A stretch of DNA of 58,264 nt, filler included, from an uncultured bacterium (GCA_964637655.1; 2 parts of 2 records of this genome joined end to end with filler, not necessarily neighbours in it), one strand, 5' to 3'; shown: positions 1,111 to 29,364, numbered from the whole stretch's first letter. Notes: a model not told the origin generated them from the sequence alone. Program-made: numbers and translations.

Positions 1111-2163
1111 ATGAACGAACCGCACGGCGGGAACCGGCGCGCGGCGGCCGAGCGCTATGGCCGCCCGGCGGAGTCCTTCCTCGATTTCAGCGCGAATATC
1201 TGCCCGCTGCCGTATCCATCCGCGCTCGCGCAGCGCCTGGCGGAAACGCTGCCGCGCCTGCGCGAGTATCCCGCTCCGGAACATCGCGCGCTCACCGCGC
1301 GCCTCGCCGCCATCTACGGTTGCGACCCCGGGACCATCGTCATCGGCAACGGCACCGCGGAACTTGTGTTCGCGCTGCTGCGCGCGTTTCCTGCATCGCG
1401 TGTTGTCACCTGCGACCCGACCTTCACCGAGTATGCGCAGGCCGCACACGCCGCCAGCCGGCCGCACCTGAGCGTCCCGCGTACCGCGGCTGACGGGTTT
1501 GCCCTGCCCGCGGCAGCGCTGGCCGGGTGCCTGCAGGAAGGAGACCTGCTCTTCCTCGGACAACCCGATAACCCGACCGGCACCTGCCTGGCGGAAGCGG
1601 AACTCGCTGACGTGCGCGCGCTCTGCCGTAAGCGTCGCGCCATGCTCGTGCTCGATGAGGCGTTTGTCGATTATACGGACACGCCCTCGCTCGTCGGGCA
1701 GGCGGATGACACCCTCATCGTGCTGCGCGCACTGACCAAAATACTCGCTATCCCCGGTCTGCGCGTCGGCTTTCTCACTACTGCACCCGCGCTGGCTGCC
1801 CGCCTGCGCGAACTGCTCCCGCCGTGGAATATCAATGTCTGCGCGGAGGTCGCCGTCGATACGCTGCTGACGCGCACGTGGGTGGACGCGGCAGTTGCTG
1901 CCAACACCGCGGCACGCGCAGAACTCGCCCGCGGTCTGGCCGCGCTGCCGCTGCGGGTCTTCCCTTCGCAGGCGAATTTCCTGCTCGTTCGGCGCGCCGA
2001 TGGCGGCAGCGTCGCCGCGCTGGCTGATACGCTCGGGCGGCAGGGTATCCTCATCCGCACCTGCACGAACTTTGCCGGGCTTGATGATGCGTACCTGCGT
2101 GTCGCGGTGCGCACCCCGGACGACAACGCGCAACTGCTCGACGCCTTGCGGGCGGCACTATGA
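1111..2163 (+). CDS. cobD: Threonine-phosphate decarboxylase (PLP-dependent)
   Basis: HGGN N-terminus, DFSANI, GNG, PDNPTG, DEAF, ALTKILAIPGLRVG (PLP Lys), IRTCTNFAGL, RVAVR; GGAGA SD; cob gene context. Confidence 0.9.
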   Translation: MNEPHGGNRRAAAERYGRPAESFLDFSANICPLPYPSALAQRLAETLPRLREYPAPEHRALTARLAAIYGCDPGTIVIGNGTAELVFALLRAFPASRVVTCDPTFTEYAQAAHAASRPHLSVPRTAADGFALPAAALAGCLQEGDLLFLGQPDNPTGTCLAEAELADVRALCRKRRAMLVLDEAFVDYTDTPSLVGQADDTLIVLRALTKILAIPGLRVGFLTTAPALAARLRELLPPWNINVCAEVAVDTLLTRTWVDAAVAANTAARAELARGLAALPLRVFPSQANFLLVRRADGGSVAALADTLGRQGILIRTCTNFAGLDDAYLRVAVRTPDDNAQLLDALRAAL

Positions 2164-3644
2164 CCCGCCCCGCACGCTGCCTGATGGTGCAGGGGACCGG
2201 CTCCCACGTCGGCAAGAGCGTGCTGGTCGCGGCGCTCTGCCGCATCTTCACGCAGGACGGGCACCGCGTACTGCCCTTCAAGGCGCAGAACATGGCGTTG
2301 AATTCCTTCGTCACTCCGGACGGCGGCGAACTCGGGCGGGCGCAGGCGGTGCAGGCGCAGGCCTGCCGCGTCCCGCCGCGCGTGGCGATGAATCCCGTCC
2401 TCATCAAGCCGACCGCGGATTGCGCCGCGCAGGTGGTGGTCAACGGCACACCGTGGGCCAACCTCTCCGCGCGCGACTACCACACGCGCAAGGCGGAACT
2501 GCTCGGACACGTTAGCGCCGCGCTCGATGAATTGCGTGCCGACGCGGATATCGTCGTCATCGAGGGGGCGGGGAGTCCGGCGGAGATCAACCTGCGCGAC
2601 AACGATATCGTCAACATGGCGGCCGCGCGCCTCGCGCAGGCGCCGGTGCTCCTTGCCGGTGACATCGACCGCGGCGGTGTCTTCGCCGCGCTCTACGGCA
2701 CCGTGGCGCTGCTCACAGAGGATGAGAAACGCTACGTGCGCGGGTTCATCATCAACCGCTTCCGCGGCGACCGCACGCTGCTCGAGCCCGCGTTTCCCAT
2801 GTTCCGTCAGCATACGCATATTCCCGTGCTCGGCGTCGTACCGTATCTCCATGACCTCGGGCTGCCGGCCGAGGACTCCGTCGAGTTCGAGGAACTCCCC
2901 GCCGCGCGGCCGTGGGGGGCAGACACCGTCAACATCGCCGTTATCCGCCTGCCGCATACCTCCAACTTCACTGATTTCGACGCGCTGCGCTGCGAACCCG
3001 ACGTGGCCCTGCGCTATGTGGCCTGCGGCGAACCGCTGGGCGGGCCCGATCTCGTCATCATTCCGGGCACCAAGAACACGCTTGGCGACCTGCAGGTGCT
3101 GCGCGCCTCGGGCACCGCGGACGCGCTGCTGCGCCTGCATGCCGCAGGCACACCCGTTTTCGGCATCTGCGGCGGCTACCAGATGCTCGGACAGCGCATC
3201 ACCGACCGTGTCGGTGCGGAAGGCCATGCCACTGCTGACGGGCTCGGCCTGCTCGCGCACGCCACCGAGTTCGGCACGGAAAAGCAATTGCGCCAGGTGG
3301 CAGGAGCACACCTGCCGTCAGGACTTCCCGTGGCGGGTTATGAAATCCACATGGGCGTGTCGGATGCGGCGGACAGTCCTCTCTTCCGCACTGCGGACGG
3401 GCGAACGCTCGGTAGCATCACTGCGGACGGGCGCGCGGCGGGGACCTACCTGCACGGCGTGTTCGATGCCGACGCCTTCCGCCGCAATTTTCTCGACGCG
3501 TTGCGCGTACGCAAGGGGCTCGCTCCGCGCACCACCATCACCCCGTATGACACCGATGCGCCGTTCGAGCGTCTCGCCGCCACCGTGCGCGCCGCGCTCG
3601 ATATGCCCGCCATCTACCGCATCCTCGACGCCGGCCTCTCCTGA
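2160..3644 (+). CDS. cobQ: Cobyric acid synthase
   Basis: QGTGSHVGKS, FKAQNMALNS, EGAGSPAEINL, GDIDRGG, SNFTDF, GICGGYQMLG and GTYLHG motifs; ATGA overlap with cobD. Confidence 0.97.
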   Translation: MTRPARCLMVQGTGSHVGKSVLVAALCRIFTQDGHRVLPFKAQNMALNSFVTPDGGELGRAQAVQAQACRVPPRVAMNPVLIKPTADCAAQVVVNGTPWANLSARDYHTRKAELLGHVSAALDELRADADIVVIEGAGSPAEINLRDNDIVNMAAARLAQAPVLLAGDIDRGGVFAALYGTVALLTEDEKRYVRGFIINRFRGDRTLLEPAFPMFRQHTHIPVLGVVPYLHDLGLPAEDSVEFEELPAARPWGADTVNIAVIRLPHTSNFTDFDALRCEPDVALRYVACGEPLGGPDLVIIPGTKNTLGDLQVLRASGTADALLRLHAAGTPVFGICGGYQMLGQRITDRVGAEGHATADGLGLLAHATEFGTEKQLRQVAGAHLPSGLPVAGYEIHMGVSDAADSPLFRTADGRTLGSITADGRAAGTYLHGVFDADAFRRNFLDALRVRKGLAPRTTITPYDTDAPFERLAATVRAALDMPAIYRILDAGLS

Positions 3645-3649
3645 TGTAC

Positions 3650-4250
3650 TGCACGGCTTTCACCACGGAGCACACACGCTCCGCAGTAAACATGTATTCC
3701 CGACCAATACTGCAACTCTCAACGGCTTTCACCACAGAGCACGCAGAGCACGCGGAGCGGCTGCGATTGTTCACAGGTTTCTCTGTTTTCACCACTACCG
3801 CCTTTTGCCCACAGGGCCTTACCTGTTCCCCTTCTTCCATGTTTCTCCGTGCACTCCGTGTGCTCCGTGGTAAAGCAGGTCCGTTCTGCCACCCTTCGCA
3901 GCAACTCTCAACGGCTCTCACCACGGAGCACACGGAGCACGCAGAGCGCACACGATCTGCAACAGGTATGGATTCCCGATTACCCATTTCGGGAATGACA
4001 CATGGAACCTGCCCGCAGGGCCGGCCCTGCTCCCCTTCTTCCGTATTTTTCCGTGCGCTCCGTGTGCCCCGTGGTAAAGCAGTGTCTTTTCTCGGCGAAC
4101 TCTGCGTGCTCTGCGGTGAACAGTTCCGTGCCGTTCTCCGTGCGCTCCGTGTGCTCCGTATGCTCCGTATGCTCCGTGTGCTCCGTGTGCTCCGTGGTAA
4201 AGCAGTGTCTTTTCTCGGCGAACTCTGTGTGCTCTGCGGTGAACATGTTT
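3650..4250. repeat. Composite palindromic repeat array 1 (9-nt GGAGCACAC/GAGCACGCA units in inverted pairs, plus a REP/dRS3-like hairpin)
   Basis: TTCACCAC(G/A)GAGCAC... at ~3659, 3728, 3918; inverse CTCCGTGTGCTCCGTGGTAAA-type units at ~3845, 4050, 4136-4201; duplicated ~50-nt block GTGGTAAAGCAGTGTCTTTTCTCGGCGAACTCTG..GCTCTGCGGTGAACA; hairpin GGATTCCCGATTACCCATTTCGGGAATGAC at 3970-3999. Confidence 0.9.
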
Positions 4251-4296
4251 CCGGTTTTCTCCGTAGCCGGTCAGTGTGCCGCGGAGACAGTCACGT

Positions 4297-5340
4297 ATGA
4301 TGGAGACATTCCTGCTGGTGTGGGGACAGGTAGTTGCCATCCTGCTCTGCGGGCTGATGCTCGATGTCATTGTCGGTGACCCGCAGTTTCGCCTGCATCC
4401 CGTGCGCCTCATCGGCGCCGCCATCACCGCGGCGGAGCGCGTCCTGCGCCGTCCGGCCGCTTCTCCCACCGCGCAGCGTCTCGCCGGCATGGTCGCCGTG
4501 CTGCTGGTGGTCGGCGGCACGGTCGCCGTCGCCGGCTGCCTGCTCTGGCTGCTCGTCGATCATATCGGCATCATGCTGCCGGCGCTGCTCGTCTGGGCCG
4601 CGGTGGCGGTGCGCGACCTGCTGCGCGAAAGCAGTGCCGTGCTGACGCACCTGCAACGCAACAACCTGCCCGCCGCGCGTGCGCAGGTGGCGCGCATCGT
4701 CGGGCGCGATACCGCTACGCTCGATGAGCCGGAGGTTGTGCGGGCCGCCGTCGAAACCGTTGCCGAGAGCGCCTGCGACGGCATCATCGCCCCGCTCTGC
4801 TGGGCAGCAGCATTCGCCCTGCCGCTCGCTGCGTGGGCGGCACTGCATCCCGGCAGCACCGCCTGGCACGTTGCCGTGTACGCCCCGCTCGGCGCGCTCT
4901 TCTGCCGCGCCGTCAACACCCTCGACTCGATGCTCGGGCACAAGGACGACCGCTACCGGTATTTCGGCTGGGCGGCCGCGCGCCTCGACGATCTTGTCAT
5001 GTACGTTCCCGCCCGCCTCACCGCGCTGCTCATGCTCCTCGCGGCGCCGCGGCCGCGTCCGCCACTGTCAGCCATGCTCACCATCGTCCGGCGCGATGCC
5101 CCGCGGCACCCGAGCCCGAACGCCGGCTGGCCCGAGACCGCCGCCGCGGCGGCGCTCGGCGTGCAACTCGGCGGCATGAATTTCTATGACGGTATCGCGG
5201 TCGACTACCCGCGTTTCGGCAATGCCACACGCGCGCTGCACGCGAACGATATTCTGGGGGTGAACCGGCTGGTCATCCACGCGCTCGCGCTCCTGCTGAT
5301 TGCGCTCTGCCTGCCGCTCATGCTATTGCTTTTCTCATAG
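4297..5340 (+). CDS. cbiB: Adenosylcobinamide-phosphate synthase CbiB
   Basis: GDP..LHPV, IVGRDT, VETVAESACDGIIAP, NTLDSMLGHK, ARLDD and SPNAGWPE motifs; multi-TM protein. Confidence 0.95.
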   Translation: MMETFLLVWGQVVAILLCGLMLDVIVGDPQFRLHPVRLIGAAITAAERVLRRPAASPTAQRLAGMVAVLLVVGGTVAVAGCLLWLLVDHIGIMLPALLVWAAVAVRDLLRESSAVLTHLQRNNLPAARAQVARIVGRDTATLDEPEVVRAAVETVAESACDGIIAPLCWAAAFALPLAAWAALHPGSTAWHVAVYAPLGALFCRAVNTLDSMLGHKDDRYRYFGWAAARLDDLVMYVPARLTALLMLLAAPRPRPPLSAMLTIVRRDAPRHPSPNAGWPETAAAAALGVQLGGMNFYDGIAVDYPRFGNATRALHANDILGVNRLVIHALALLLIALCLPLMLLLFS

Positions 5341-5796: not shown

Positions 5797-5803
5797 AAAA
5801 ATC

Positions 5804-5943
5804 GGGGACGGGTGTTGACAAATTGACAAACTTTTGGCTATAAAGCCCGTATACGTCACCTATACGCCTTTCCGCCTATTTATCAACCAATATTCGCAAT
5901 ATGCTATATTTGCAAGTTTGTCAATTTGTCAACACCCGTCCCC
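5804..5943. mobile_element. MITE-like 140-bp element with perfect 30-bp terminal inverted repeats
   Basis: GGGGACGGGTGTTGACAAATTGACAAACTT (5804-5833) and its exact reverse complement (5914-5943) flank an AT-rich 80-bp core; related copy at 12156-12297. No obvious target-site duplication. Confidence 0.7.
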
Positions 5944-5950
5944 ATTGCCT

Positions 5951-7440: not shown

Positions 7441-8399
7441 TCGCGTACACGCATGAGATAGATGATGAAAAAGGTGCCGCCCACCAGCCCGGTGAGCACC
7501 CCGACAGGGAGCTCTGTCGGCGCCACCAGCGTCCGCGCCAGCGTATCAGCCAGCACGAGGAAGGTTCCCCCCGCCAGCGCCGCGGCGGGAAGCAGCACGC
7601 GGTGCCCGGGTCCGCACCAGCGGCGCAGCAGGTGCGGGATGAGCAGCCCGACGAAACCGATCATCCCCGCCACTCCGACACAGGCACCCGTCACTAATGA
7701 AGCGGCAAGGAAGAGTTCGCGCCGCACCCGCACTGCCTCCACCCCGCGCAGCCGCGCCTTCCCGCCCCCCCGCGTCCGCCGGTCGAGTCCCGCCGCGCGC
7801 CGCCGCACCACCAGCTGGCCCGCGGCGACGAGGATGCTCCCCGTCAGCAGCAGTTCGCGCGTCACCGCCGACAAATCCCCCATCAGCCAGAGGAAGACGC
7901 CGTGCAGTTCCTGCGCGGTGGCCAGCGCGAAAATGAAGAGCACCACCGCGCTGAGCAGAAAATTGAGCATCACCCCGGCGAGGATGAGCATGGCGACAGA
8001 GAACCCGCGGCGCGCGGCGCGCCGCCCGACCCAGAGCGCGGCCAGCAGCGCGCCGCTGAACGCCGCGCCCGGCACGCCGCTGGCGCCGCTCCCCGCGATG
8101 ACCGCGAGCGCCGCCCCGAGCACCGCGCCCCCCGAGACCCCGAGCGTGTAGGGCTCCGCCAGCGGGTTGCGCAGCAGGCCCTGGAACACGACGCCGCCGA
8201 CCGCGAGCCCCGCCCCGACGAGCAGCGCCGTCAGCACGCGCGGCAGGCGCACCTGCCAGATAATCGCCGCTTCCGGGGCTGTCCCCTGCGGTCCCGCCAG
8301 CAACCCCTGCCGGCATTCCGCCGGGCTGAGTACGCCGACCGACAGCGCCAGCAGCGTCGCTCCCAAGGCCAGCACCGGCAGCAGGGCCGCAATTTTCAC
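7425..8399 (-). CDS. btuC: Cobalamin ABC transporter permease (FecCD/BtuC)
   Basis: VRLPRVL, QGLLRNPLAEPYTLGVSGGA, WLMGDL, IGFVGLLIPH, ELPVGVLT; the EAA loop is anomalous (see findings). Confidence 0.92.
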   Translation of the reverse strand: MKIAALLPVLALGATLLALSVGVLSPAECRQGLLAGPQGTAPEAAIIWQVRLPRVLTALLVGAGLAVGGVVFQGLLRNPLAEPYTLGVSGGAVLGAALAVIAGSGASGVPGAAFSGALLAALWVGRRAARRGFSVAMLILAGVMLNFLLSAVVLFIFALATAQELHGVFLWLMGDLSAVTRELLLTGSILVAAGQLVVRRRAAGLDRRTRGGGKARLRGVEAVRVRRELFLAASLVTGACVGVAGMIGFVGLLIPHLLRRWCGPGHRVLLPAAALAGGTFLVLADTLARTLVAPTELPVGVLTGLVGGTFFIIYLMRVREWKLF

Positions 8400-9286
8400 G
8401 GCAACACCGCCGCCGGATGAAAGAGTTTCGCCAGCAGTCGCACGCTCGCCGCATAATGCTGCGGGGTCGGGATGCAGATTTCCTGCGCGCGCAGCAGCGG
8501 CAACCGGTTGGCCCGCACCGCTGCCAGCGACGGCACCTGCCGCCAGCGCTCCGCCTCCGCCGGCGACATGTTCCCCATGTCGACCATGAGGATGAGGTCG
8601 GGATTGAGGCGTAGCGCCTCCTCGCGGCTGTAGCGCGGGTAGGCCTCCGCGTTCCCCGCGGTCAGGTTCTCACCGCCCGCATCGCTGATCAATTCGTTGA
8701 GGAACGACCCGCTTCCCACCGCCACCAGCGGATCCGTTCCCACCTGGCAGAGCACACGCACGCGCGGGAAAGGCGCCACCGCCGCGTGCGTGCGATCGAT
8801 GGCACGGTCAACCTCCGCCACCTGCGCCGCGGCGCGTTCCGTCACGCCGAGCAGTTTGCCCAGGCGCAGGTATTTCTCCCGGATGGACACCCAGCCGGTG
8901 TCGAGCCCGAACTCCTCGATGTGCAACCCGACGCCGCGCAACTGTTCCAGCGTCCGCGCGCGGTTGGTCGTGTTGTTGGCGAGGATACGGTCGGGGCGCA
9001 GGGCGATGATTTTCTCCGCGTTCGGCTGCAACAGCGTGCCGACGCGCTCCTTCGTTTCGCGGGCGTGGTAGGCAGTGCAGTAGTCGGTCACCCCGACCAG
9101 GCGCGTATCCTCGCCCAGTTCGTAGACCATCTCCGTCAGCGATGGCGCCAGCGAGATGACCCGCTGCGGCGCTACGGTCACGGTACGTTCCGGGGCGATG
9201 CCCGGGCTGCAGCCCGCCGCCAGCAGACAGCCCAGCAGCAGAACACACCCGCAATAACTTAATAACTTGAGCTCCGTCCCCCTCAT
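8396..9286 (-). CDS. btuF: Cobalamin-binding lipoprotein (BtuF-like)
   Basis: Lipobox-like LAAGC; PQRVISLAPSLTEMVYELG, VGVTDYC, PNAEKIIALRPD, AGGEN, NPDLIL motifs. Confidence 0.9.
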   Translation of the reverse strand: MRGTELKLLSYCGCVLLLGCLLAAGCSPGIAPERTVTVAPQRVISLAPSLTEMVYELGEDTRLVGVTDYCTAYHARETKERVGTLLQPNAEKIIALRPDRILANNTTNRARTLEQLRGVGLHIEEFGLDTGWVSIREKYLRLGKLLGVTERAAAQVAEVDRAIDRTHAAVAPFPRVRVLCQVGTDPLVAVGSGSFLNELISDAGGENLTAGNAEAYPRYSREEALRLNPDLILMVDMGNMSPAEAERWRQVPSLAAVRANRLPLLRAQEICIPTPQHYAASVRLLAKLFHPAAVLP

Positions 9287-9311
9287 CCCCTCATCCCCTC
9301 ATCCCCCTCAT
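9278..9311 (-). repeat. Tandem repeat (ATGAGGGG[G]) x4 at the btuF start
   Basis: Minus strand reads ATGAGGGGG ATGAGGGG ATGAGGGG ATGAGGGGG; the last ATG is the btuF start. Confidence 0.85.
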
Positions 9312-9329
9312 CACACTGAGAAAGGCACT

Positions 9330-9885
9330 TGTTTGACCACAGCACACGGAGTGCACGGAGGGATGCACCGGAGCGGACAGCTACCGGGCCCGGCAGGCAT
9401 GTACCAGCGAACGTTCCAGCAGCAGTGACACCGGCACACCGCTGACGCTCCGCGTGCTCTGCAGTAAGGTTTCGCTTCACGGCACTGGACTCCCGATTAT
9501 ACATTTCGGGAATGACGATCTTGTCTTGTGAAGTTTCCGCGGCGGTCTCGTCTTTGGTTGTCACTCCTGAAACGGGTAATCGGGAGTCCGGCATTTCCCC
9601 CTGCATCAGGATGTTTTCCGTGTGCTCTGTAGTGAACCTGCCGTTGCCGTGCGCCCGCAGGGCCATCTCCGGCATCAGTCTCCTGCCGTTCTCCGCGTGC
9701 TCCGTGTGCTCCGTGGTGACCGTTGTTGCCGGTCCGGCCGACGCAGCCGCAGCGCCGCCGGCACACCGCTGACGCTCCGCGTGCTCTGTGGTAAACCTGC
9801 CGTTGCCGTTCGCCCGCAGGGCCATCTCCGGCATCAGTCTCCTGCCGTTCTCCGCGTGCTCTGTGTGCTCTGTGGTGAACATGCT
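9330..9885. repeat. Composite palindromic repeat array 2 (same family as 3650-4250)
   Basis: CTCCGCGTGCTC(C/T)GTG..GTGAAC/GTAAA units at ~9448, 9617, 9691, 9775, 9850; ~88-nt direct duplication 9632-9719 vs 9791-9878; inverted hairpin pair GGACTCCCGATTATACATTTCGGGAATGAC (9487-9516) and GTCACTCCTGAAACGGGTAATCGGGAGTCC (9560-9589). Confidence 0.9.
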
Positions 9886-9893
9886 GTACCGCC

Positions 9894-11774
9894 TCAAAAA
9901 TCAAGCCGCAGGCCGGCACGAATGCTCCGCCCCGCCTCGTAGTATTCATATCTGCTGGCGCCCGACAGGTCGCCCGCGGTCGCGTTTTCACGGTCGAACA
10001 GGTTGGTCACGCCGACGGTGAACTCGCCCCACCCGTCGGGCAGCGCGATGCCCACCGTCGCGTCCGTGCTGACGAAATCTGCGAGCGCGTTCTGCCGGTC
10101 GCAGAGCATGGTCTGGCTCACCGTGACGTTCACCGTGCCGTTGTCGAAGGCCAGCGAGGGCTTGAGCTGCCACTCCGCCCCCGTCTGCGTCCTGCTATTC
10201 TGCGCATTGACAAATTCCGCATCGGCGTAGCACCCGGCAAACGACACCTGCCAGTGCTCGTGCGGAGTAATGCCGAGATCCCATTCCACGCCCGTGCTGC
10301 GGTAGTAGCCGGTGTTGTAGTAGGTCAGCGGATTGCCGAGCGTGCGGTCGAACTCGATCTTGTCCTTGTAGCGCATGAGGAAGGGCGCCACCGTGAGGTC
10401 GAACCACTCCCCGTCATACTTCCCGCCAACCTCGTACGTCCAGCCGTGCTCAGGTTTCAGGTCGGGATTGCCGCGCACCAGGTTCGAGACACGGTAGAGG
10501 CGGGTCAGGTCAGGCGCCCGGAAGGCACGCCCGGCATTGGCATACAGCACGACCTTCTCCGCCACCTGCCATGACGCCTGCGCCGTCGGCATGAAGGTCG
10601 AGTAATCAGCCGCGTCCTTCTGCGTCACCCACTGGTGCCGCCCGCCGAGCGTCACTGCCAGCGCTTGCCACGGCCGCAGCGTCACCGTGCCATAGCCCGA
10701 CCAGTTGCGCCGCGTGCGCGTCCCGTACGCTGAACTCTTCACGCGATCGACCTGCCCGTCAGCCCCGACGAGATATTCCACCATCTCACTGATGCTGCCA
10801 TGATACTGCGGGTTGGCGCCCCAGCGGAAATAGTCGGTGGCATTCAGTTCCGGCGCGTTGTCCGTGCGATACCAGAGCAGGTCGCTCAGGTAATTCCCCT
10901 GCAGGGAGAACCCGTCATGCTCCCACGCCAGCGTCGCGAGGTTGCGGTTGCCCTCCTGCACCGAGCCCCGATGGCTGTTGCTGGTCGTCACCCGCCGGTC
11001 GGGCCACGGGTTGCGTACGAACCCCGTCGTCTCCCGTGATCCGAGCCAGCCGGCGGTAAGCCCGTCCACCGGCTCCAGCCTGATCAGCGCGCCGTAGTCG
11101 TCGGTCGGCATCTGGTCGTATTCCCAGAAACCGGTATGACTCTTCGCGATGCGGTCGAGCGCCCCGAGATGCGTGTGGCTGATGCTCGCCAGCCAGCGGG
11201 CGTCCGCCACGCTCACCGTGCTGCGCACAAACGCGTCGTTGCCCGCCTCACTCTGCACCGTCGCTTCGCGCCCCTGCGGCTTCCGCGTGATGATGTTGAT
11301 GACCCCGGTCATCGCCGCCGAACCGTACAGTGCCGAGTTGGCACCGCGCACCACTTCGATGCGCTCGATGGCGCTGACGGGAATGGTGTTGAGGTCGTAG
11401 CCGCCCCCCGACGGGTTGTTGAGCGCCTGCCCGTCAACGAGCACCAGCTCGCCGTCGGGCACGCCGCGCACCGGCAGTTCGCTGTTCATCCCCCCCTGGC
11501 TGCTGCCCAGCGGCCCGTAGGAGACGTAATCGAGTCCCCCGAGGCCGCGCACCGCTTCCGCCGCGCTGCGCGCCCCGCGCCGCTGCAGGTCATCTCCGCG
11601 GATGACCGTGGTGAAGGACGGGGTGGTCAGCACGGGCGTCGCATAGCGCTGCGCCGTCACCACCACTTCCGCCAGTTCAGTTGCCGGGGGTTCTGCTGCC
11701 CTGCTGCCTGAGGAAAAGAGCACTGCCACCGCTGCCGCCGCCAGCCACTGCCACTGCCGCCGCCTGCCGTCCAT
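9894..11774 (-). CDS. btuB: TonB-dependent receptor, probable cobalamin/cobinamide importer
   Basis: Signal peptide, TonB box EVVVTAQR, plug motif IERIEVVRGANSALYGSAAMTGVINIITRK, GRAFRAP, GNPDLKPE, NLFD, C-terminal Phe; downstream of a B12 riboswitch. Start reassigned to ATG 11774 (AGGAG SD). Confidence 0.9.
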   Translation of the reverse strand: MDGRRRQWQWLAAAAVAVLFSSGSRAAEPPATELAEVVVTAQRYATPVLTTPSFTTVIRGDDLQRRGARSAAEAVRGLGGLDYVSYGPLGSSQGGMNSELPVRGVPDGELVLVDGQALNNPSGGGYDLNTIPVSAIERIEVVRGANSALYGSAAMTGVINIITRKPQGREATVQSEAGNDAFVRSTVSVADARWLASISHTHLGALDRIAKSHTGFWEYDQMPTDDYGALIRLEPVDGLTAGWLGSRETTGFVRNPWPDRRVTTSNSHRGSVQEGNRNLATLAWEHDGFSLQGNYLSDLLWYRTDNAPELNATDYFRWGANPQYHGSISEMVEYLVGADGQVDRVKSSAYGTRTRRNWSGYGTVTLRPWQALAVTLGGRHQWVTQKDAADYSTFMPTAQASWQVAEKVVLYANAGRAFRAPDLTRLYRVSNLVRGNPDLKPEHGWTYEVGGKYDGEWFDLTVAPFLMRYKDKIEFDRTLGNPLTYYNTGYYRSTGVEWDLGITPHEHWQVSFAGCYADAEFVNAQNSRTQTGAEWQLKPSLAFDNGTVNVTVSQTMLCDRQNALADFVSTDATVGIALPDGWGEFTVGVTNLFDRENATAGDLSGASRYEYYEAGRSIRAGLRLDF

Positions 11775-11878
11775 CGTCCTGCTCCTGCGCACCGGCACGG
11801 CTGCTGCCCCCGCGCCGCCGGCAGGAAACACCGGACGGGCGGCTGTGCACGCGACAGCCGTACCTGTCAGTCGCCCGC

Positions 11879-12035
11879 GGGCAGGTCTTCTGGCTTCCGG
11901 GTCATCCTCCCGCTGCGCCTTCCCGCCATGCGACGCATGACAGTGGCACTGCTGCAGCGTTCGTCTCCGGTTACAGCGGCGCGTCCGCGGCCGATTTGCA
12001 CGGCCTTCCCGACTCCACATCGGAGCGCCCGCAGG
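11879..12035 (-). ncRNA. Cobalamin (AdoCbl) riboswitch
   Basis: Minus strand: ...GGGAAGGCCGTGCAAATCGGCCGCGGACGCGCCGCTGTAACCGG...GCCACTG...GGGAAGGCG...AAGCCAGAAGACCTGCC (B12 box); lies in the btuB leader. Confidence 0.93.
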
Positions 12036-12042
12036 CAGCGCG

Positions 12043-12071
12043 ATGATACGCCACCTGCCGCCGCTTGTCAA
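12043..12071 (-). promoter_or_regulatory. sigma70-like promoter of the riboswitch-btuB operon
   Basis: TTGACA(12071-12066)-N17-TATCAT(12048-12043), immediately upstream of the riboswitch. Confidence 0.65.
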
Positions 12072-12155
12072 CCACACGGGTTGCCTCACGTAAAATCATC
12101 GCGTAACTGATTCGTTGCCTCACATGAAATCTGCGCGAAAACACTCACGGCAGGC

Positions 12156-29264: not shown

Positions 29265-29364
29265 NNNNNNNNNNNNNNNNNNNNNNNNNNNNNNNNNNNN
29301 NNNNNNNNTTAATTAATTAANNNNNNNNNNNNNNNNNNNNNNNNNNNNNNNNNNNNNNNNNNNN
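29265..29364. other. Artificial contig-join linker
   Basis: 44 N + TTAATTAATTAA (stops in all six frames) + 44 N = exactly 100 nt. Confidence 0.97.

Follow-up and report, generated by a model that had tools for sequence, protein, structure and literature searches.

REP, BIME and REPIN elements are extragenic imperfect palindromes that lie behind gene ends, form mosaic clusters and are co-transcribed in operons. They are enriched between convergent and co-directional genes, and REPs are treated as untranslated RNA or DNA structures. The MIRUs of Mycobacterium are reportedly short tandem direct repeats of tens of bases, and their open reading frames (ORFs) are said to overlap both neighbouring genes. 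MIRUs are placed between the co-directional genes of operons, and the idea of a bridge between these genes has already been described for them (Supply et al., 1997, as cited in a passage of PMC12548453). The RPE, ERIC, YPAL and 107-bp Correia elements are palindromic mobile repeats that stay open in a frame and are tolerated in translated regions (a section of PMC2229807). Ordinary coupled gene pairs have ATGA or TGATG overlaps of stop and start codons (PMC6728339 and PMC10666635). Here, we analysed a palindromic repeat array between cobQ and cbiB in a window of 58,264 nt (the whole stretch of DNA under analysis, filler included) from the draft genome of an uncultured bacterium (GCA_964637655.1). 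Judged from its sequence, the block between the two genes is a mosaic array of a palindromic repeat of the REP/MITE type (MITE, miniature inverted-repeat transposable element). Our preferred reading, held with some but not high confidence, is that arrays of this repeat at operon junctions persist as translatable bridge ORFs, which would keep translational coupling between the neighbouring genes.

The cobQ/cbiB array (array 1) and its two neighbours are arranged as follows.

2160-3644, plus strand: cobQ (cobyric acid synthase); NF001989 (631 bits) and TIGR00313 over the NCBIfam cut-offs, Pfam GATase_3 and CbiA.
3642-3646, plus strand: TGATG, in which the cobQ stop (TGA, 3642-3644) overlaps the ATG of bridge ORF 1 (3644-3646); direct reading.
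3644-4300, plus strand: bridge ORF 1, 218 codons, stop-free, made entirely of repeat modules.
4297-4302, plus strand: ATGATG, in which the TGA of bridge ORF 1 (4298-4300) overlaps the cbiB start, with ATGs at 4297-4299 and 4300-4302; direct reading.
4297-5340, plus strand: cbiB (adenosylcobinamide-phosphate synthase); TIGR00380 over its cut-off, Pfam CobD_Cbib.

Translation of 3644-4300 bore out the claim of an earlier note on this DNA that a single 218-codon stop-free frame lies between cobQ and cbiB and is start/stop-coupled to both. The product is repeat-derived, as that note had also held: heads read FTTEH or TEH, and tails read LRVLRGK or LCVLCGE. The units preserve the frame, and all direct-repeat spacings in array 1 are multiples of 3 (204, 42, 45, 9, 123, 189, 69, and 210). 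Between 3644 and 4297, no stop occurs in the frame of the ORF. The caveat that other frames are partly open was right, because these hold 2 and 6 stops (sense) and 4, 1, and 7 stops (antisense). The cobQ-cbiB interval comprises 652 bases with a G+C content of 0.57-0.60 vs 0.65-0.72 in the flanks, and the GC skew is -0.29 (C over G) in the first half of the array. Alternatively, cbiB could start at an in-frame GTG at 4276, and the overlap with bridge ORF 1 would then be 25 nt.

Units of 9 nt make up the hairpin arms of the element: one side reads TTCACCAC(RGAGCACRC)n and the other its complement. Head arms consist of ACGGCTTTCACCAC followed by the units RGAGCACRC, tail arms read (GYGTGCTCY)n GTGGTRAA, and a few conserved spacer modules complete the element. 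The head and tail arms of array 1 (17-30 nt) pair over spans of 50-550 nt with 83-94% complementarity.

3653-3676, plus strand: head arm 1 (ACGGCTTTCACCACGGAGCAC...), pairing with the tail arms at 3858-3874, 4185-4201 and 4226-4243.
3722-3758, plus strand: head arm 2, 2.7 nine-nt units; repeat listing.
3843-3874, plus strand: tail arm (CTCCGTG... GTGGTAAA), complement of the heads; direct and inverted repeat families.
3911-3951, plus strand: head arm 3, 3.3 nine-nt units; repeat listing.
4047-4122, plus strand: two adjoining tail arms, forming one copy of the 73-nt direct repeat D2; repeat listing.
4134-4245, plus strand: tail arm of 6.8 tandem 9-nt units (4136-4196), then the second D2 copy; repeat listing.

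An Rfam search over array 1 returned only MIR4239 matches on both strands (26-30 bits vs a gathering score of 100), which are spurious.

Genomic copies of the repeat were mapped by BLAST, which yielded 79 blocks first and 133 intergenic blocks after two further rounds. Gene ends and starts were taken from a simple gene caller based on codon statistics, which called 3402 genes (88% coding). A single contig, C15, of the 3.99-Mb draft genome (485 contigs, 65.5% G+C) makes up positions 1-29264 of the window; other contigs are numbered likewise. Ten co-directional regions hold 250 nt of repeat or more, and in six of them (C13, both C15 arrays, C30, C70, and C285) one sense frame is stop-free throughout. 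In all six, the open frame begins at the last base of the upstream stop, and antisense frames are open in 0/30. The C30 array holds 10 N. A seventh array, on C275, is open before and, in matching frame, after a 100-N scaffold gap; it starts with TAATG and ends with ATGCTGA. The arrays on C60 and C317 (dapF/dapA) have stops in every frame, as does that on C32 (100 N) as assembled. The bridge arrays are those in which the repeat fills nearly all the space between two genes; they measure 330-650 nt and hold ORFs of 112-218 codons. The flanking genes of the seven are operon partners: uppS and cdsA; cobQ and cbiB; a receptor and a BtuF-like gene; two Opp/Dpp-type ABC ATPases; biotin synthase (bioB) and a class I/II aminotransferase (bioF-like); DUF748 and a GT4 glycosyltransferase; and an MFS transporter and an acyltransferase with an AMP-binding domain. 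Arrays without an open frame are flanked by an unknown gene and a chorismate-binding enzyme, by dapF and dapA, and by UvrD and a HEAT-repeat protein.

A wider library set comprised 18 N-free co-directional regions of at least 250 nt with at least 140 nt of repeat. The frame in coupling phase was open in 5/18, the other sense frames in 0/36, the antisense frames in 4/54, and the frames of 14 convergent or divergent regions in 7/84 (5/18 vs 11/174 frames, Fisher P = 0.009). This was the check that the earlier note had proposed, and in this genome copies filling the space between operon partners were open and coupled in sense far more often than other frames, antisense frames or convergent copies.

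In each of the six open frames a start codon overlaps the upstream stop; the junctions are ATGA (C30, C70, and C285), TGATG (C13 and array 1) and TTGA (array 2, the second array on C15). An overlapping ATG was found at 123 of 765 other gene ends followed by at least 100 gene-free nt, against which five or more of six has P = 5.6e-4. Downstream, three frames end in ATGA, one in ATGCTGA (C30), one 13 nt into the gene (C285) and one in ATGGATGA (C70, assuming that the bioF-like gene starts at the ATG beginning MDELRGW). All six stops are TGA and lie 1-13 nt into the downstream gene. Because ATGA at gene starts is common anyway (191/589), the stop-side overlap weighs less.

The frame is held only where an array bridges two genes, and this constraint is the strongest result of the analysis. 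In bridge arrays, heads read (F)TTEH and tails LRVLRG(K/E), whereas other arrays of the same repeat mix all phases. The head and tail motifs share one codon phase in 10/10 cases in array 1, 7/8 in array 2 and 5/5, 8/8, 9/9 and 7/7 in the others, and in 6/6 cases in C275 before its gap. Ungapped BLAST matches among the seven bridge arrays were in phase in 161/175 cases between arrays and 32/35 within arrays, and all 17 out-of-phase matches include C275 sequence from beyond the arbitrary gap of 100 N. In the five N-free bridge arrays, 81/81 matches between and 28/28 within arrays were in phase (109/109 in total). For 23 other arrays of the same repeat, the phases were distributed as 203/191/198 between and 16/8/12 within arrays; since modules occur there in all phases, the repeat family has no built-in frame. 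Matches within one repeat family are not independent, so these counts are a pattern and not a P value. The first head stands in coupling phase in 7/7 bridge arrays ((1/3)^7 = 4.6e-4). Its distance from the stop varies (11, 17, 20, and 23 nt) and the phase stays constant. A general phase preference of first heads behind stops was not found at other gene ends (20/22/15). Gap lengths in gapped BLAST alignments were uninformative: 14%, 13%, and 16% were multiples of 3 across three comparisons, which is alignment noise.

From the observed anatomy of the arrays, their frame constraint and its restriction to junction-filling arrays, we infer that ribosomes translate the arrays and that selection acts on this. 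A ribosome finishing cobQ at the UGA would restart at the overlapping AUG and read 218 codons through an RNA whose very stable fold would otherwise sequester the cbiB Shine-Dalgarno sequence. It would then stop at the UGA overlapping the cbiB AUG and restart there. The RNA of 3630-4320 has a predicted fold of -283.4 kcal/mol (z = -8.0 vs 20 shuffles), which includes the following site.

4283-4286, plus strand: GGAG, Shine-Dalgarno-like, 10 nt before the cbiB ATG; predicted to be paired in free RNA with a probability of 0.96.

Such bridging would keep translational coupling and would probably shield a long C-rich stretch from polarity, the bridge peptide being most likely a by-product. Left untranslated, the C-rich first half of the array would give several hundred bases of the kind of RNA on which Rho loads. 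Avoidance of polarity (or decay) and maintenance of coupling, each proposed from sequence, cannot be separated here.

The explanation that competes best with translated bridges, though an unlikely one, is a cassette that arrives already in frame: an ORF intrinsic to the element, or to one of its sub-lineages, would land at or next to stop/start overlaps, with no later locus-by-locus selection. Bridge arrays are indeed mosaics of the same modules, always in the same frame. Whatever the context, elements also sit very close behind stops, the first head often being 9-23 nt away, and the MIRU precedent is described in such terms (in a passage of PMC12548453). However, the same modules occur about the rest of the genome in all three phases, the head-to-tail phase is mixed in other arrays, and the stop-to-head distance in bridge arrays varies without loss of phase. 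Neither was a consistent target-site duplication found, and a single array can have different junction types at its two ends. That the element has a stop-free frame of its own was rejected in view of these modules in all phases and of the lack of bridging in two Longimicrobiales metagenome-assembled genomes (MAGs). Target-site duplication of an ancestral TGATG formally fits array 1 and was rejected on account of the differing junction types at the ends of other arrays.

Codon usage speaks to the product. The bridge ORFs score -0.09 to +0.06 per codon vs a called-gene median of 0.29 and a 5th percentile of 0.15, and their G+C content at third codon positions (GC3) is 0.56-0.70 vs approximately 0.84 in the neighbours; bridge ORF 1 has a score of -0.06 per codon and a GC3 of 0.56. 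No Pfam or NCBIfam family matches the bridge ORFs, and in the 119-382 amino acid range of 5.8 billion protein clusters the only match of the bridge ORF was itself. Because codon usage is non-genic and no protein homologue was found, the act of translation rather than the product probably matters, and a protein function of the bridge ORFs is unlikely. The suggestion of the earlier note that the repeats seed de novo proteins is unsupported by these scores and searches. We consider it very unlikely that the arrays code for proteins with a function, whether as young de novo genes or as members of a repeat-protein family (e.g., His/Glu-rich metal-binding peptides near cobalamin genes). Such proteins would agree with the kept frame, with the presence of bridge ORF 1 in the protein collection (i.e., a gene caller had called it), with the best codon score of the bridge frame among the three sense frames and with the TEH frame of all heads. 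They are at odds with the lack of homologues and families and the codon scores far under the 5th percentile of called genes, with the occurrence of the same modules in unrelated operons and with a sequence constrained as a nucleic-acid palindrome (z = -8).

Chance openness in stop-poor DNA was evaluated with several controls. Array 1 alone is only weakly suggestive of more than chance: its frame was open in 21/2000 first-order Markov resamples, and P = 0.0585 when its modules were joined in random phase. The pattern exceeds chance because of its genome-wide recurrence, not because of array 1 by itself; under the module-phase null, P(≥5 of 9) = 1.7e-5. In 142 repeat-free co-directional regions of at least 300 nt, the sense frames were open in 6, 8, and 16 and the antisense frames in 12, 13, and 15 cases. 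The repeat-free regions open in coupling phase read like ordinary proteins missed by the gene caller; a region-spanning ORF in coupling phase is therefore the mark of a real cistron, which the arrays imitate. Two Longimicrobiales MAGs, which hold many single hairpins with the same 23-nt core, served as a further control. Open sense frames occurred in 3/13 (phases 1, 2, and 1) and open antisense frames in 2/13 cases, with no excess of open sense frames among these 13 co-directional regions. It is highly improbable, therefore, that a 65% G+C genome and stop-free repeat arms produced the open frames and that the overlaps are coincidental. Just 1-2 stops in some other frames of array 1, P values of 0.01-0.06 for array 1 alone, the 4-11% of frames open across repeat-free intergenic regions of at least 300 nt and the frequency of ATGA at gene starts would fit such an origin. 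Against these stand the phase shared by six or seven arrays with overlapping starts, the 109/109 matches in phase, the module-phase null and the lack of any excess in antisense frames, convergent regions and the Longimicrobiales control.

The public runs listed were of DNA only. Contig pieces from such other runs are identical at both junctions of array 1 and over most of its interior (3436-3796, 3592-3760, 3759-3971, 3851-4035, 4114-4385, and 4250-4471), and none covers the whole array. The contigs hold no informative variant; the only 3-nt net deletion among them occurs in one matching just 60 nt, which is probably another repeat copy. That short-read mis-assembly over repeats made the array order and frame is extremely improbable: the 485-contig draft, the N runs in three arrays and the lack of an independent contig spanning array 1 would allow it, but these pieces match without differences, collapse or expansion by the observed repeat periods (multiples of 3) leaves the frame unchanged, and the pattern recurs on six contigs.

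Several points weigh against translated bridge ORFs. Thirteen of the 18 N-free co-directional arrays, including dapF/dapA (C317) and C60, are stopped in every sense frame, so bridging is not a general rule for the element. The ribosome bridge across repeats proposed by the earlier note thus stands in part: sense openness, first heads and in-phase matches speak for it at bridge arrays, and these 13 arrays speak against it elsewhere. Transcription and translation of the arrays are themselves what we infer from sequence. The downstream genes have Shine-Dalgarno-like sequences of their own, so they need not depend strictly on coupling. The sample is a small, post hoc one, with non-independent matches within the family. 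Three frames of the heads are stop-free, and all heads stand in a single one of them; avoidance of stops alone would not require this, and part of it may come from founder effects or from copying of modules that were already in frame. A single short-read assembly underlies the internal order of the arrays, and the gene boundaries rest on our own simple gene caller. In the collections searched, there was no genome closer than 55% CbiB identity and no empty-site allele of a close relative.

A broader reading is possible but tentative: selfish hairpin repeats might persist in coupled junctions only by becoming translated cistrons, as a general rule of translation-proofing. Arrays of up to 218 codons would then be kept in frame purely to convey ribosomes and would form a pool of expressed, unconstrained ORFs; the element itself would be an apparently undescribed hairpin family with 9-nt periodic arms and a 23-nt core in approximately ten phyla. 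If this is true, there is a standing pool of expressed, sequence-unconstrained ORFs as a possible source of new genes. The arrays are natural candidates for studies of de novo gene birth, and on the bridge reading they offer, from sequence alone, a clear, countable footprint of selection for translatability on DNA without protein function. The MIRU idea, framed on short tandem repeats of mycobacteria, would extend to mosaic palindromic arrays that are long and lie in an unrelated, uncultured lineage. For annotation, the warning is that such hypothetical proteins would be neither real protein genes nor meaningless ORFs. The system also offers a simple design for studying how ribosome transit protects operons from structured or Rho-sensitive insertions.

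Array 2 lies on the minus strand between a TonB-dependent receptor gene and a BtuF-like gene.

11863-12047, minus strand: cobalamin riboswitch heading the receptor operon; RF00174, 93.9 bits vs a gathering score of 31.5.
9894-11666, minus strand: TonB-dependent receptor, B12-receptor-like (below the equivalog cut-off), ending ...DF-TGA; family profiles and our gene caller.
9283-9897, minus strand: bridge ORF 2, 204 codons, TTG to TGA, with an in-frame ATG at 9882, 12 nt after the TTG.
9278-9311, minus strand: four units of ATGAGGGG(G) at the start of the BtuF-like gene (9286); repeat listing and direct reading.
8396-9286, minus strand: BtuF-like periplasmic binding protein with a lipoprotein-like N-terminus; Pfam Peripla_BP_2, NCBIfam TroA_like over and BtuF below its cut-off.

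The second array had been described as open end to end, and its 204 codons hold no stop; the other sense frames hold 8 and 4 stops and the antisense frames 4, 3, and 8. Its junctions are TTGA on the receptor stop and the TGA within ATGA on the start of the BtuF-like gene, and its repeat period is 159 nt. The ATGAGGGG(G) units contain TGA in all three frames (9310/9301, 9293, and 9285), ATG in each frame and G-rich Shine-Dalgarno-like runs. Since TGA occurs in three frames, any incoming frame would end 25 nt or less from the start of the BtuF-like gene. The 8/9-nt tandem repeat at 9278-9311 could slip. The cobalamin riboswitch was the only family passing in the Rfam search. Because it precedes the receptor, a mechanical ORF of 9894-12089 overcalls the receptor 5' end.

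Upstream of cobQ lies one further gene of the same run.

1111-2163, plus strand: cobD (threonine-phosphate decarboxylase); TIGR01140, 300 bits, over its cut-off; our gene caller.

It is the first gene of the run cobD-cobQ-array-cbiB and overlaps cobQ by 4 nt. The C-terminus of CobQ is complete, with homologue alignments in tblastn extending to residues 485-494 of 494. Among 17 loci of distant lineages with cobQ before cbiB, most junctions overlap (ATGA, TGATG, TAATG, and GTGA), and TGATG directly joins cobQ to cbiB in distant lineages. Array 1 therefore entered a normally coupled junction with a 1- or 4-nt stop/start overlap. The phylum of the source organism has only 2 genomes in the genome set compared. 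The sole genome of the same family is without the repeat motif, and no cobQ match was found in the stretch upstream of its cbiB. A metagenome scan with CbiB gave no match above 50% identity. Positions 5801-5946 are a palindromic intergenic stretch of 8-nt repeats (TTGACAAA / ATTTGTCA) with mirror-image spurious microRNA matches on both strands, apparently unrelated to the 9-nt family. Positions 29265-29364 hold 2 N runs of 44 nt each, and the window past 29264 lies outside contig C15.

Copies of the repeat are almost exclusively intergenic. Regions with the repeat are relatively commonest among convergent gene pairs (24/285), followed by divergent (15/291) and co-directional pairs (51/2341). 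In approximately half of 64 gene-end-proximal cases, in all orientations, the first head lies 9-23 nt behind a stop codon, with recurrent distances of 9, 17, and 21 nt genome-wide. Such spacing points to a rule of targeting or to a minimum distance from the terminating ribosome. In C81:2749-3291, a gene continues at its C-terminus into a repeat head read in another frame (...HHGAHGARGE...) and overlaps the next gene by 4 nt; here the element has been absorbed in frame, as in RPE.

The 23-nt core TTCACCACRGAGCACRCRGAGCA (window 3653-3750 and 9857-9879) is, among the matches listed, exactly common to MAGs labelled as approximately ten phyla: Gemmatimonadota/Longimicrobiales (many copies), Planctomycetota/Phycisphaerales, Verrucomicrobia, Acidobacteriota, Chloroflexota, Nitrospirota, Omnitrophota, Bacteroidales, Proteobacteria, and Desulfobacterota-type. 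A scan with the core gave at least 97 stretches, with approximately 40 assemblies among the 80 loci examined (counted by record prefixes). There, the core usually belongs to a single hairpin behind a gene end, with 9-nt periodic arms (CACAGAG plus 2 variable bases) and 100-480 nt between the arms. It is rare, being found in 0/400 other sampled genomes. The repeat had no blastn match in a plasmid collection. No description of the hairpin family was found in Rfam or in the literature, where 13-nt motif strings matched only unrelated eukaryotic papers. Literature on REP with translational coupling and on MIRU yielded the MIRU passage and nothing on the present element.

Compared with known systems, the element resembles a MITE in its terminal inverted repeats around a short core. 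The junction sequences differ between the two ends and between arrays, and the search for a mobilising partner was limited to Y1 transposases. Eight Y1_Tnp matches (IS200/RAYT-type, PF01797) were found on contigs C121, C40, C11, C309, C41, C197, C212, and C454. The repeat motif occurs in 0/8 of these loci, so an association with a RAYT, as in RAYT-mobilised REP or REPIN, was not found. Like REPs, the present repeats are extragenic imperfect palindromes, clustered behind gene 3' ends and mosaic; they differ in the 9-nt period of their arms. A REP carries a GTAG or CGTC tetranucleotide tag at one end, according to Di Nocera et al. (2013; PMC3733652). By inspection, this tag is absent from the present arms, which begin with TTCACCAC and end with GTGGTGAA or GTGGTAAA. 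RPE-type elements lie within host genes, fused in frame, so that the host protein includes them (a section of PMC2229807). In contrast, the present arrays are separate cistrons in the -1 frame of the upstream gene, with stop/start overlaps, and only C81:2749-3291 resembles RPE. Ordinary coupled pairs share the junction types, and of the 2341 co-directional pairs in this genome 487 have a 4-nt and 110 a 1-nt overlap; they differ from the present arrangement, in which the middle cistron is entirely selfish repeat DNA with no protein family and with non-genic codon usage. MIRU is the closest precedent. Array 1, array 2 and the five further bridge arrays likewise lie between co-directional genes of one operon, and their ORFs likewise begin on the upstream stop and end on or just inside the downstream start. 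By analogy, the present arrays would work as MIRUs do, but they differ in architecture and are not classed with the MIRU sequence family: by description, they are set apart by units that are palindromic hairpin modules with 9-nt periodic arms, by mosaic or nested arrays, and by an uncultured lineage, in which only a subset of the copies (7 arrays) is of the bridge type.

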